A stretch of DNA of 64,000 bases from Microthyrium microscopicum (lineage: Eukaryota). The position numbers and the translations under genes were made by a program. Positions 35,217-55,797 of this stretch are shown here, piece by piece (positions within the stretch are counted from its first letter, which is position 1; each line of letters begins with the position of its first letter). The notes below the pieces were generated by a model. The model made no database searches, was not told where the DNA came from, and saw only the letters and a program-made list of their open reading frames with translations. The stretch covers positions 507,530-571,529 of the forward strand of contig MU004238.1 of NCBI GenBank assembly GCA_010405405.1. Reading direction: 5' to 3'.

Positions 35217-36783
35217 TTAAGTAGCACGCGACCTCTGAGATAATCCAGTCCCTCCTCCGCTATCTTGCCTATTAGTGTCCTCTTCCAACTCGATACGATC
35301 AAGAAATCCAGGATTAATGATTGGACTATGCAACTCCCCAATCGTCGACATACATGCCGCCGCCGGATCACCACTCGCCTGCAACTTGCCAGCCCAGTAC
35401 TCATTTCCTGGAAACGAATCGCCATCCCAAGCATAACTGACCACCAGCAACTGCTTCCTCTTATCACCGCTCAACTTCTTGGCTGGACTTCGCCCGCTGA
35501 AGATTCCATCAACGCCTTTTTTCGCACTCCTAAGCGTGATAATCCGCTTCTGGTCCACTGTTCTCTTGCCGGGTCCTTCGCCATCCCGGAGAATATGCGC
35601 GGACTCAACCGTGCCAATAGGCCCAAGATCTTCCTGGCCAATCGCCACCCCCCAAACTTCCAAAAACCACCTCATCTGGTTATGATGCATCGCCCAAACA
35701 CCAAGTCCAAAGCCAGCGACATGGACATACGCTGACGTCTTTGCTTTCTGGGCTCGCGAGCTGGCTTCCCAGAGCAACATGTCGACTGTAATCCTCATTC
35801 TTGCCTTATACATAACCTTATCGAACCAACCACCCTTGAAATCTCCATCCGCGGTGTCTCCTCCATCTACAGCATCTTCATCCACAGTGTCCTCACTTCT
35901 CTCTCTCTTCACACGCCCAAAGAACACTTGAAGTGATTTTACCAACTCCTCATTCATAACAACACTCTTCCCCTCCTCACCATCCTGATCCAGATCCTCA
36001 TCCAAAATAAGCAAAGAATCCATCCTATCCGCTCTCTCAAACCTCGCCCCAACCAAACCCACAATGATCCCCCGTTCTTCAAACGTCCCCTCTCTCCCTC
36101 TTTTCCCCTCATTATATCCTCGCCCCTTCATTAACAAGAAAAGTCTCCCCACTAACACCGATCAAACTACCAAGCATTATCTCATCATAGCTCAGATAGT
36201 CCTCCAAACTCAGCTTACTGTGCTTATTATACCGTTCCCTCATCGTGCCCACACGATCCCATTTCTCCGTCGCCTTTTTGATCACACTACCATCCCGTAG
36301 GACAGTATAATCCGTCGCGTTCATGAATACTAAGGGCCGTTTGGCTATCAGGCGGGATATTTGTTGTTGCCAGGTCCAAGCTTCTGTGTACAAGTCCTTT
36401 TCAATAGCACTGCCGTGTTCGCGTTTATGTGTGAGGAAGGCGTCGACGAGGGCGGGATAGCGGTGATGTACGATGATACGTGTACTTTCGGCATCATATT
36501 TGATTTGCGTGGGGGAGAAGTTGGAACGGAGTTGGTGCTGATTGGAAGGTTTTATGCAGAAGTCTTTAAGGCGGAGGAAGAATGGGTTGGAGGGTGGTTT
36601 GGGAACGGGTTTCTTTGCTGGGGAAGTCTTACAGTGGATTTCTGGGTAATTGATTTTTTGGGCGGTGGGCTTTTCTGGAATGACTTTTCGTGGAGATGTT
36701 TTGTTGGAGAGGACTGTTCGGATTGATGGTGTGCTGGTTGTGGCTTTTGGAGTGGGTCCTGATTTAGGAAACACACATCCCAT
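35217..36783 (-). pseudogene. DUF4804/MavL-like macrodomain protein, split by a one-base frameshift
   Basis: ORF1 has RLIAKRPLVF and YLSYDEIMLGSLIGVSG; ORF2 has GLVGARFER, GFGLGVW and YAWDGDSFPGNEYW..SGDPAAAC. Removing one base at about 36117-36119 gives continuous NEGARYNEG. Family name from recall. Confidence 0.75.
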
Positions 36784-37451
36784 TCTCCGCGACTAATCTG
36801 CTATATTGACATTTTCACATGATGCATTGTGGGTTTTTTCTGCTCAAACAAAATATACCAATCTGTTTGTTCCTTGTGTTAAGAGTTGACTAGACTGCTT
36901 AGGAAGTAGTGTATAAGATTAGCAAACAGGTTGATGAGCCATTGTCCTTGCAAATGAACGTGTAAAGTGTGTCTTGTGAATACTGATCGATCAAGTTAAT
37001 ATGGATGTACTTGAGAAGTGTTTGAACATGAGCTCTGGATACCTTCCTAGTAACCCACATGTGGCGGCTGACGAAGTGCTTGAGAGTTTGTCACACGTTC
37101 AACCAGCTAGTAGACCAGGGCATCACGAAGCAATTGCGGTAATTGCGAAACAGGATTCTTTTCATGGAATACAATTTGCTCAAGAATCAAAGTGTTTCGA
37201 GATTCAAGGAAAGACGTTGATACCACAACACCCTTGTATCATTAGCGGCGGGCCAACCCGCCGCTAAAGTCTCATCGTGCCTGCCTATCAGAGCCTAGTC
37301 TGGTAATCTAGTGTGATGACAAGGACTCAGGAGCCGAGTCCGTTTTTCGTCCCAAGTCTGCAAGTCGCAACTCTCTCATCCATCGGATCAACGATCTGGC
37401 AAAGCACACTTCAGGAAATATACAGTCTCTCGTAATCTTACAGCAGCAGTC

Positions 37452-50225: not shown

Positions 50226-52847
50226 TAGTGATGCTGTAACGGTAGATCTGGTATACCGTTCTACCGCCAAGCCTTACCCCAGCCAATCAGAGTCGTAGAA
50301 TCCCGCATCCCAAAATATCAATATTTTGAAGCTTTTATAACATTGTAATTACTTAACTAAATATATACTTTTTGGTGTTGTTTTAAAGGTCTAGACCTTG
50401 TTTAGACTCCTGTGTTTCTTGTTGAGACTTTGGAATATAATCTGTAGCGTCATCTAGCATTTGCTGAGTTGATTCTTCCTCCGCGCGGATATCTTTGACT
50501 ATACCTGAATCAACTTCACTGCCGTCTATCTCTATCAAATTCGATCGCTAGCGATCGTAATGAAGCTTGTCTAAAGCGTCTTCTTTAGTATTATTAAAAC
50601 TATACCAACAGACTGGTTTGAAGAGAGAACCACTAACGTGATAGGGCCCTGATTGTACTACTAGTTGATTAAGCTTTTTGCTGTTCATATAACTAAAAAT
50701 AAGCATATTCACGCGCGGAGCTGATAAACGCGTACGGTGAGGATTTTGAACCTAATTAATTGCTGAAAATGATCTTTCTGAGGGAACTGAGTTAGCTGTA
50801 GTTTCAAATAGCCTAATTGCAACATCTGAAAGCTTTGGAACTGCTGTTCGAAGACATTCTTAGAAATGTAGTGGTTTTTGATGAGTCTACGCTTCTCCTG
50901 CTTCGTGAGATGTTGAAAACACTCCCTGTTGTCTTCTAAAAGACCTGAATTCCTTACAGATTTGATTAACCTCTTTTTGAGCTTTCTTTCGATCATCTTC
51001 AGTCGCAGAAGAACGAGCTTGGAACCGTTTTGTGAGGGCCCTGATGGAAGCTAAATAACTTCCTAGTGATAAAGGATTATTAGGATCTACGTTGGCAGGA
51101 TCTAGAGCTGAAGCTAGGCGATTATCGTTAGTAACCTGTTCGTAGAGCTTCTTATCGAGTAATCGCTACAGTTCGTCCTGAATGTGCTGAATTTGACTAA
51201 TCTTAGGATATTCTATAGTGAGATTACCCTAATCTGATCTAACTGCGTGCTATCCTTTTATTACTTTGCCTAAATGGTGTTTTAATCCCTCTAATTCCTT
51301 TTGAGTGATGTAAATAGGCTTTAGGATGTGGTAAAGAAGTCGAATATCTTGCCAGAATTGAGGGTTTTTCATAAGATCAAAAACCACCTTATTTTTAGCT
51401 TTTGCGGCTTGAGTATCTCCAGGAATAGGAATAGATCGAGTAAAAGCTTCAATAGATGTAGCACTTTTGTTTAAAGAACTAACAACGCCAAATTGGGACC
51501 CTTAGCGAGTAATAATTGATAATCCTATCCTGTAAGTGGTCCTGTAGTTATTGAGCTGAAACTCGCGGAGTTGTCCAAAATATAAGGGCCTTGTTCTGAA
51601 CCAAATAGCTACTTCAGTAATCTTTGATAATATAGCTTTTAGTGGGTTGATTCCTTCTAAAATACTACTGATCAGTAGCTGAAGACTATGAGAATCGTAG
51701 AGTACCATTGAGCACTTTTTAAATGCTTCGTTGGGGTGTTTGTTGAGGATATCTGCAATAGTACGCATAGTATTGCAAGTGTTGGAGCTGATCGAGTTAA
51801 CGCGCGCCAGATCTCCCTTGGTTTATCGTTTAAGGGCTTCTATTAAATGTATTGCTAGATTTGAAGCTGTTGAGTGTTCTCTACGTAAATCAACGGTTTC
51901 TAGGTAAAAGGAGCCTAGAGAGGGAATAATAACACAAAAATTGGCTATTTGGCGACTAGCTCTATTAGTACTTTTGTCTATAGAGAAGTTGAGAAGAGGC
52001 TGATTCCTGAGGATACTTTGAAGCTTTGAGAGATCCTGTCCGTAGATATCTTTGATAAGAGGTGGTATATCCCCTCGTTGTGGAGGATGGTATCCTGAAA
52101 GACCTGCTAATCTCGCTGAATCTACTTCATGGTTGTATGTTGTTGAATGGCATATTTTGTTGTATGTATTTAGTGGTAGAGCCTCTTGAACTACTCTCTT
52201 CGCGTAGCGACGATTCTAACTAATTCGCTTTTGAGCACGTAAAATAGCTGTATTAGATTGAACGATTGGGGCTGCTATAGTGGGAGGTAAGTGCCCTTTG
52301 AATCGAGAATGCGCTTCTTGTCGACTAATGTGTTCTGTGAGTTGATAATGGCAATAACGGCAGCTTTAGCGAGTAGAACTAAGAGGATTGTCTTTTGGTA
52401 GTAATATCTAGTGTTGTAAGATATTTGCTCGTTCTTGTGGAGTTCGATTTGGTAATCTGGAAGCCATTTTTGGCCTAGATAATGCGGTGTTTCTGGAGGT
52501 AGAAAGGAATTGCAAATATAACTCAAATTGATTGGAAACTTATACTATTGTGTAGAGCTAAACGAGAAGAATACGTACGTCTTAAAAAATTTCTTATTTG
52601 GGTGCTAAATGCTATACTATTTGTGTAGTGAAGTTAGTCTTATTTTTGGTTGATTAAAAGACGTGAGAAAGATTAGGATTGAAGGGACGCTAGTCCCTAT
52701 TAAGAAATTAAGCTGAATATATACTTACGTGTCCTCTTATTATACTAATAGATTAAGTTATACCCATCTGCAGTGGTATACCAGTAAATTACAGTGGTAT
52801 ACCGTCGTAGAAGGTATACCGCAGAAGCGAGAAATACTGCATCACTA
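50226..52847 (-). mobile_element. hAT-superfamily DNA transposon, full length (2622 bp), RIP-inactivated
   Basis: TIRs TAGTGATGCTGTA / TACTGCATCACTA (12/13). 8-bp TSD CCCCAGTG at 50218-50225 and 52848-52855. Subterminal GGTATACC copies (50250, 52775, 52796, 52813). AT- and TpA-rich interior. Confidence 0.96.
50650..52526 (-). pseudogene. hAT transposase pseudogene
   Basis: FSIDKS..GSFYLE, SISSNTCNTM, YDSHSLQLLI, ITR*GSQ and the dimerisation motif AIRLFETTANSVPSERSFSAIN*; many stops and frameshifts. Confidence 0.92.
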
Positions 52848-53756
52848 CCCCAGTGACAAATGCGGAGTGATATGGTGCCGAGCTTCATAGCATCGAGTTT
52901 GCCAATGAGTTCATTATGGATTGCCGGCCAAGTATCCCCATATTTGAATGTTGTATGTTATGAACCCCTGAAGCTAGAATATCTGCGTATTATTTACCGA
53001 CTCTGTGAGATTCCTTAGGCCCGTCATACAGAACGAAAGGCCGGCCAGTGCTGGAACAGTTGATTTCTTGTGGGACATCTCGCCTGCTTGAGTGGTGAAT
53101 CTATGTATCTGATATGCTTCACACGCTACAGCTATAGTATATGAAAGCGAAGCTTCCACCACTCAACTTCCGCACAAAAAATGAGTTGAACCACCCGTCA
53201 CATGATTATTGCTCGGTCCGTTAACTCCTCTCAACGTACAACAAGAGAACTTAAGAGTGCAAACACTGGAGAACTCGGCTGAACCCCACTATGTGGATGC
53301 GTACTCTACTCTACCCCCGCATCACGAACACTGCCCACTTTGCGACGTCATGGTGTTTTCTTTTCAGTCATCCATTGATATTCTTGCGCTAACCATGCAA
53401 GCGATGTCATTCCGCGCCAACAAGTGGATGGAAGAACAAGACAAGCACGGACAAGCTTTCACTAATGTGGATCGACTGCAAGTAACTCCTTCGGATGGTG
53501 TTGATGGAACCTGTCAACCCAGTAAGTTGGGTATCACGAGCAAGATCTTACCCTAGAATACAGCTACGCCTCGATTGGCGGCGCTTCTAGACTCCATCTG
53601 AATGCTTGCGTCGTCGAATCGTTACACCACTAGTATTGAATTGAAGATGCTGATTAGACGGACTAATGCACCCGGTCCCATTCGCTGTTTGAAGAATGTC
53701 TTCTGCCAACTTTTGAGAGTTGTAGCTTTTCCACCAGTGAGGTAGCCAACAAACGC

Positions 53757-53903
53757 TGATGGCAGGGGCGACGACGGGGGCTGTTTCAGTGGTAAACAGG
53801 TGCTATTTAACGCCAGTTGGTAACGGATCCTCCGTAGCTTCGACAACATCTTTTAGCCAATATAGATTCCATCAAAATCCTCTGCTCCGTTGAACTAACC
53901 TCA
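53757..53903 (+). repeat. 5' LTR
   Basis: TGATGGCAGG..CTAACCTCA, identical to 54459-54605. Contains TATTTAA (TATA-like) and AATATA (poly(A)-signal-like). Confidence 0.92.
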
Positions 53904-53906
53904 ATC

Positions 53907-53924
53907 TGGCGCCCAGCGTGAGGC
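53907..53924 (+). promoter_or_regulatory. Primer-binding site, tRNA-Lys type
   Basis: TGGCGCCCAGCGTGAGGC matches the canonical Lys1,2 PBS TGGCGCCCAACGTGGGGC at 16/18 positions. Confidence 0.82.
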
Positions 53925-54458
53925 GGAGCATGATTCTCTATCAATCAAAATTCCTATCAAAACGAGCCATGTCGTTGAACGGACGGACGACAACGAGATC
54001 ACCCTTTCGTTTGCTTTACCATTCTCAACTGATCATCATCATAACAAACAACAACTATGAGGCCACATTACGCTGCCATCAAATGAACTCACAACCATGT
54101 CGTTGAACCCACGGAGACTATTTTACGAAACAATTTCAGCCAAAAATTGGCTTTCTGACGACGATTGAGCACGACGAACCTGATTTGCGAATACATGGCG
54201 GCGAACACACGGATGACACGATGAGAGCATGCCGGCGGCTGTTGCGACCGTTGAATGGAAAGGACCAGCTTTGAGAAGACGTTTTTGACGGGGAAGGACT
54301 ATTCCGCAGCGAATTGTGGTTTCTGAACCTGGCGGCTTCATGTGTTTTTGACAAACGAAGAGAGGCGACGACTGGCTGTTGTTGAAGGGACGGACAATAA
54401 GCGAATTTCATCATGAAAGATCAAGGGCAAGCTTGATCTTAGTTGTCTTTGGGATGGT

Positions 54459-54605
54459 TGATGGCAGGGGCGACGACGGGGGCTGTTTCAGTGGTAAACA
54501 GGTGCTATTTAACGCCAGTTGGTAACGGATCCTCCGTAGCTTCGACAACATCTTTTAGCCAATATAGATTCCATCAAAATCCTCTGCTCCGTTGAACTAA
54601 CCTCA
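54459..54605 (+). repeat. 3' LTR
   Basis: Base-for-base copy of 53757-53903. Confidence 0.92.
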
Positions 54606-54954
54606 ACGCCATGTGGGAAAACCTCTGAGAGTGCTTCATTAGGCTAGAATGATGACATGCTTGTGCAGATGTGCATCGTGTCCATGAAGCTGGTATATCA
54701 AGCGCCACTAGCATCCAGCAAGAACCAGATCGGTGCGTGGGCGCAGTTGAGATCGGATGATTGGCGAAAGGGAGAGTTTCCGGGAGCTCATCCGGGTAGA
54801 AAAGCTGTACCAACTACCAAAGCACTACTAGTTGAGGTATTTCTTTGGTATAAAACCAGGCTGTGGACGTAAACTTGTGTCAAGCAAATCCTTAGCACAA
54901 ATACACTCCAATATATTTACTCTTCAATCCCAGTTCTTTCAGCCACATTACACC

Positions 54955-55797
54955 ATGTCTAACTTCCTTGACAAAGCCAAAGATGGTCTCAACAAGTTGA
55001 ACCAAAAGATGGACAATAAAAAGTCCGGCAACAATGACGACTCATATGGTTCATCTGGTAACAGTGGACAATATGGTTCAAACAACCAGTCCGGTAACAC
55101 TGGGTCGTATGGTTCAGGCAACCAATCCAGCAATACGTACGATAACGATTCCTCAAATACCTCGGGACTTGGAGGCCGCCAAGGTATGTTTACTGGACAA
55201 CCGAGAAGCGTCTGTCCAAGCATCTAACTCGAAGCAGGCGGAAACAACGACGACTCATACGGTAGTGGAGGAATGAGCGCCAACACTGGCGGTTTGAGCG
55301 GCGCCACTGGTGGTTTAGGAGGTGCTACTGGTGGCCATCACCACAAGAACCAGAACGATGACAGCTATGGCAGCTCTGGCAATACCGATAACTACAGCTC
55401 TGGCAACACTGGTGGTATGGGAAGCCGCACAGATGACTTTGGCTCTTCAAACACCGGCGGAATGGGCGGTAGTGGTGGACGTTCCGACAACGATTCATAT
55501 GGTCAGAGCGAAGGGCTTGGTTCCAGCGGACGCCAGCAAGGTCTATCAAGTGGTGGTCAAGACGATTATAGCTCCGGCAACACCCAGAGCTTCGGCTCCG
55601 GTGGTCGCCAGGGAGGCAATCAGGATGAGTTTGGCTCAGGTACATCAGGCCAATCCGGTTTTGGTTCAAGCGGTGGCCGTCAAGGACAAGGCGAGTACGG
55701 CTCAGGAGATACTGAAGAGTTTGGTTCATCAGGCCGCCAAGGAGGAGGAGACCAATATGGCAGCTCTGGTCGACAACAAAATGACGACTCATACTAG
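54955..55797 (+). CDS. Gly/Ser/Asn/Asp-rich hydrophilin-like repeat protein
   Basis: Exons 54955-55183 and 55238-55797 (GTATGT..CTAAC..CAG). Repeated DDSYGSSG and FGSSGRQG units; TATAAAA at about 54849. Confidence 0.85.

Follow-up and report, generated by a model that had tools for sequence, protein, structure and literature searches.

The 64,000-nt stretch of Microthyrium microscopicum DNA that was analysed, referred to here as the window, contains at positions 53757-54605 an 849-bp sequence that is probably a TRIM-type LTR retrotransposon, non-autonomous and belonging to a small family of this ascomycete. It lies 349 nt upstream of a co-oriented ORF with a G/S-rich product. Its structure agrees with that of a TRIM, though with a weak polypurine tract and a putative primer tRNA, and gene-less LTR elements are already known in other ascomycetes; it thus adds an example and no new category. 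Only two of its traits are unusual, and mildly so: a Lys-like primer-binding site of the tRNA 3'-end type and a probable 4-bp target-site duplication. Its interest lies in being a clean, apparently young gene-less LTR element situated upstream of a gene in a gene-rich fungal region, as copies of such elements serve as insertion markers and can change the expression of neighbouring genes. Its parts are the following:

53753..53756, + strand: ACGC, the target-site duplication on the left (AACGC, starting at 53752, if the 5-bp reading is adopted)
53757..53903, + strand: 5' LTR, 147 nt, TGATGG...CCTCA (base 53904, an A, is also common to the 3' copy)
53804..53810, + strand: TATA-like motif TATTTAA in the LTR, a putative promoter element, with a second occurrence at 54506-54512
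53859..53864, + strand: AATATA in the LTR, resembling a poly(A) signal and possibly acting as one, with a second occurrence at 54561-54566
53904..53906, + strand: 3-nt spacer ATC between LTR and primer-binding site
53907..53924, + strand: primer-binding site (PBS), 18 nt, TGGCGCCCAGCGTGAGGC, 16/18 letters as in the foamy-virus tRNA-Lys site
53904..54458, + strand: non-coding interior, 555 nt
53967-87, 54095-115, 54193-213 and 54374-94, + strand: a 21-nt motif present in four scattered copies, 71-100% alike
54448..54458, + strand: weak polypurine-like tract, TTTGGGATGGT, adjoining the 3' LTR
54459..54605, + strand: 3' LTR, same sequence as the 5' LTR
54606..54609, + strand: ACGC, the target-site duplication on the right

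The LTRs are the firmest part of this description. Positions 53757-53904 and 54459-54606 are direct repeats with 100% identity across 148 nt, of which 147 nt belong to the LTR if it is read from TG to CA; the LTR ends read TGATGGCAGG.. No further direct repeat of at least 60 nt occurs in the 64-kb window, which excludes chance as the origin of the pair, and the window holds no other copy of the element. The total length of 849 bp falls below the approximate 1000-bp threshold for TRIMs given in the consulted part of PMC10886601, and the two direct LTRs are short, identical and bounded by TG and CA. Coding capacity for gag or pol was absent as judged by Pfam and homologue searches: the longest internal ORFs comprise 62 aa on the + strand and 92 and 72 aa on the - strand, none of the five internal ORFs tested had a Pfam match at E values up to 1, and the 92-aa ORF had no homologue in a large protein collection. 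Repeat comparison and these searches bear out the original prediction, made from the letters of the sequence, of identical 147-bp TG..CA repeats around a 555-bp interior devoid of gag/pol-like ORFs. Its remark that the polypurine tract is weak also holds, with purines making up 7 of the final 15 bases before the 3' LTR and only GGGATGG resembling such a tract. The 21-nt interior motif contains GTTGAA, which occurs near the LTR end too. When the element was searched against a plasmid collection no match was found, and its LTR-end patterns gave 0 and 0 matches in viral contigs.

The primer-binding site begins 3 nt beyond the 5' LTR, exactly where it had been predicted. Compared with the tRNA-Lys site of mammalian foamy viruses printed in the accessible text of PMC4261875, it agrees at 16 of 18 positions, with mismatches at positions 10 and 15 only, and it shares 10 of 11 letters with the Drosophila Gypsy tRNA-Lys,2 site as excerpted from PMC1635307. 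We estimate the chance probability of a 16/18 match at about 2e-8. Both differences from the foamy-virus site are transitions; in the tRNA they correspond to positions 67 and 62. Complementarity ends after 18 nt, the extent expected from the methylated A58 of the tRNA, which usually stops reverse transcriptase. The tRNA itself was sought by several routes. ARAGORN found 0 tRNA genes in the 64-kb window. The 15-mer complementary to the PBS had at least 120 matches in viral contigs, with an adjoining T-loop or CCA in 0 of the 120 listed, and the 18-mer complement had a single match, without a tRNA. The pattern for a tRNA gene ending in the PBS complement gave 0 matches in viral contigs and one non-tRNA match in metagenome contigs; as it required all 18 nt to match and the T-loop to be canonical, a tRNA agreeing at fewer positions would have been missed. 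Literature searches with the PBS sequence and with its complement returned unrelated primers only. Because these searches failed to produce the actual tRNA, the Lys-type assignment, well-founded as it is on the sequence, is to be taken as inferred rather than as a demonstrated match: the claim of a tRNA-Lys primer stands as far as the resemblance to printed animal sites goes, and no fungal tRNA has been found to go with it.

Two other arrangements around the primer site were considered. The LTR contains TGCTCCG (53883-89), which is complementary to CGGAGCA located directly 3' of the primer site (53925-31). A leader stem around the LTR end and PBS (53883-53931) was rejected as not significant, with a z value of -1.66, an equal result in 10 of 200 shuffles and a 7-nt match of roughly the length that chance produces. 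Self-priming of the Tf1 type was discarded as well: the PBS zone is complementary to other parts of the element over at most 7 nt, about the chance level.

Parts of the locus are present in eight public runs, and the contigs of four were compared with it. These four seem to come from one organism or from near-identical ones, and runs X1-X4 are possibly the assembly's own data. Record 9 of run X5 and record 17 of run X6 cross the left junction without a mismatch, extending at least 31 letters to either side of it. At the other three of the four junctions the contigs enter the LTR for 29-30 letters, as against the 31 demanded by the bridging rule, and contigs built with k = 31 typically reach 29-30 letters at a repeat edge. 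Such contigs are too short to cross a 147-nt repeat, and this, together with three junctions falling one or two letters below the rule, is what could be said for an assembly artefact or a chance tandem duplication. Either appears very improbable in view of the TG..CA ends, the PBS 3 nt beyond the LTR and the flanking duplication, of the single-copy depth and lack of differences in all four junction contigs, and of the same joins in run X5, which comes from a second study. No contigs skipping the element, as expected of an empty site, were seen in the four runs compared; since the runs apparently stem from approximately the same organism, their absence is no test for empty alleles.

The same contigs indicate that the element has relatives. 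In run X3, an interior contig without differences (53875-54302, 428 nt) has depth 1029 and a diverged one of 417 nt has depth 1086; with the flanks at 860 and 1036, each looks roughly single-copy. Over 53876-54302 the diverged contig departs from the focal copy by 39 letters and 26 gap positions, and this second interior is about 9% diverged. Its 5' LTR is joined to PBS and interior (records 4 and 12) and its interior to the 3' LTR (record 13), with no difference in the PBS among those listed; from these joins, two or more loci carry the short gene-less form. Foreign flanks accompany LTR-like contigs showing 4 to 17 differences, and one such LTR copy lies mid-contig in 16.5 kb. Diverged LTRs with other flanks and a second interior together point to a small multi-copy family and not to a lone duplication, as the prediction of a TRIM-like family had anticipated. 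Copy number appears low; the summed depth of the LTR bins, 6-7 thousand, is a rough figure and not a copy number. Alternatively, an autonomous element could have suffered a single internal deletion and been spread by segmental duplication, the short form itself not retrotransposing. Run X3, with no more than about two variants of the interior, each at the depth of a single copy, is compatible with that history, as is the failure to see an autonomous partner or full-length relatives. We consider it unlikely, for the second copy, in spite of its divergence, has retained the same joins of LTR, PBS and interior and of interior and LTR, and the focal copy's own target duplication and identical LTRs are what the short form leaves when newly integrated. 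Run X5 contains extra contigs that share only the last 30-40 or so interior nucleotides and the first LTR letters and then diverge; these could be other relatives, perhaps the autonomous partner. Element-variant contigs in this run have depths from 95 to about 2800, compared with 20-40 on the flanks, which reflects strong expression or else a much higher copy number in that organism. None of the runs containing the locus is listed as RNA. That run X5 is RNA is a guess, and the depth is therefore not counted as evidence of expression.

A target-site duplication is present, with ACGC on both sides as predicted, and its length is ambiguous between 4 and 5 bp. The flanking letters, with a slash at the boundary, are AACGC/TG.. 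on the left and ..CA/ACGCC on the right, and allow three readings: ACGC, 4 bp; AACGC, 5 bp, with an LTR one base shorter; and CGC, 3 bp, with a 148-nt LTR. The original prediction preferred 4 bp and noted that 5 bp could also be read, which the flanks do permit. Four base pairs is the natural reading and the one towards which we lean slightly, without regarding it as settled. The same TRIM-like element might instead be ordinary throughout, with a 5-bp AACGC duplication, the last A of CA contributed by the target and a typical fungal Gypsy or Copia partner, a possibility to which we give some, though clearly less than even, credence. The sequence is compatible with it, and 5-bp duplications are reported for fungal LTR elements and fungal TRIMs in the literature passages available. 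It would, however, leave the LTR terminating in ..CCTC instead of CA, whereas the loose-end LTR variants in contigs of the public runs likewise terminate in CA. A possible second flank pair, ..GCCGG/TG from run X3 and ..CACA/CCGGA from run X6, fits 4 letters and never 5; the pairing is unproven, combines different runs and was one of about six compared. Searching the literature for 4-bp duplications in fungal LTR elements returned nothing relevant.

The described systems closest to the element are TRIMs, defined from plants and animals and also known in ascomycetes. The accessible portions of the respective papers tabulate nine TRIMs in Cochliobolus heterostrophus (7 Copia-related and 2 Gypsy-related; PMC4112212), 24 in Sclerotinia sclerotiorum (3 + 21), which has a Gypsy element with a 5-bp duplication (PMC5004834), and one curated TRIM family in Zymoseptoria tritici (PMC10652580); TRIMs are reported from basidiomycetes as well (Kojima 2024, PMC10886601, in part). 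The novelty assigned to the element in the original prediction was consequently overstated. Like the ascomycete TRIMs, it is shorter than 1000 bp and has two short LTRs, a putative PBS, a weak polypurine-like tract, a non-coding interior and a flanking duplication, and it would, like them, depend on a partner. Set against these TRIMs by description, it differs in its probable 4-bp duplication and in having a Lys-like PBS of the 3'-end type, neither of which is described in the passages on those TRIMs. The passages available from PMC3248453 make no mention of TSD, PBS or tRNA.

Helenus elements provide a second point of reference. Pucciniales fungi are credited with 113 Helenus families, with 5-bp duplications and apparent Copia partners (Kojima 2024, PMC10886601). 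According to the same excerpts, fungal Helenus elements occur in Pucciniales and Agaricomycetes and have PBSs that are mostly of the anticodon-loop type, and animal Helenus elements combine 3'-end primers, tRNA-Lys among them, and 4-bp duplications with Gypsy partners and a resemblance to Gypsy elements. The present element resembles Helenus and TRIMp3, so far as these are described there, in being a probable TRIM of a fungus, with a putative PBS and a weak polypurine-like tract. Unlike them, it has no tRNA-like or 5S-like sequence in its LTR as judged by ARAGORN and by Rfam, which returned nothing for the element at E values up to 10. An assignment to the Helenus/Cassandra/Ajax (TRIMp3) type, defined by small-RNA-like sequence in the LTR, was rejected on this ground.

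The PBS starts with the same nine letters as the sites of Drosophila Gypsy and of retroviruses primed by tRNA-Lys1,2, as printed in the consulted parts of PMC1635307 and PMC4261875. Those, in contrast, are autonomous animal elements, and descent from them is nowhere indicated here; the resemblance may simply reflect a conserved tRNA. Among fungal Copia elements, the literature passages at hand describe the GalEa clade as lacking a PBS and FunCo1 as priming on an internal tRNA-Lys region. The pairing of a 4-bp duplication with a Lys 3'-end PBS is represented in the sources consulted by insect and other animal elements and TRIMs of the Gypsy type, not by fungal ones.

Assuming that the element is a TRIM, its propagation can be pictured as follows. 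RNA polymerase II would start transcription in the 5' LTR, which has the TATA-like motif at LTR positions 48-54 and the poly(A)-like motif at 103-108, and the RNA would be packaged by the Gag of an autonomous element as yet unseen. On the 18-nt site, a Lys(CUU)-like tRNA would prime minus-strand DNA synthesis with its 3' end, and the partner's integrase would presumably insert the copy through a staggered cut of 4 bp or, less likely, 5 bp. Priming by a tRNA 3' end and the probable 4-bp duplication lead us to guess that the partner is of the Ty3/gypsy rather than the Ty1/copia type. No RT, integrase or gag was found in the 24 ORFs scanned out of the 25 of at least 200 aa in the window. Should further copies confirm the Lys primer and the 4-bp duplication, these traits would point towards the autonomous mover. 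The 0 differences in 147 nt correspond to an age of less than roughly 1 million years if substitutions accrue at 1e-8 per site per year, and of less than 10 million years at 1e-9; the original wording of a very recent insertion is stronger than this bound of about 1 to 10 million years warrants. With a size of about 850 bp and LTRs of 147 nt, the short form might conceivably, though this is a rather unlikely reading, escape repeat-induced point mutation.

The element is surrounded by genes of an ordinary eukaryotic kind. ORFs of the window encode, among others, a carboxylesterase, an aspartyl protease, LIM and WD40 proteins, myo-inositol-1-phosphate synthase, a CVNH protein and DnaJ. Among named relatives, the carboxylesterase comes closest to those from Helotiales, at 65-67% identity; given these relatives and the fungal character of the window genes, the ascomycete host assumed in the prediction is reasonable. 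The ORF at 54955-55797, co-oriented with the element, begins 349 nt past the 3' LTR, which places the element in the upstream region of this ORF. Its product is repetitive and G/S/N/Y-rich, matches no Pfam family and occupies two frames, probably as the result of a split by an intron.

Two further segments of the window deserve mention. Between 50200 and 52800 the GC content falls to 0.34-0.42, compared with 0.47 for the window, with a strong excess of G over C and several broken minus-strand ORFs, one of which (51826-52215, - strand) has a sub-threshold match to DUF659 (E 0.0012, 18.9 bits against a cut-off of 34.7). This segment, 1.5 kb to the left of the element, may be a decayed hAT-type transposon eroded in a RIP-like manner. 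Further away, at 35220-36792 on the - strand, two adjoining ORFs jointly match the MavL-like ADP-ribosylhydrolase family, with E values of 3e-57 and 3e-23.
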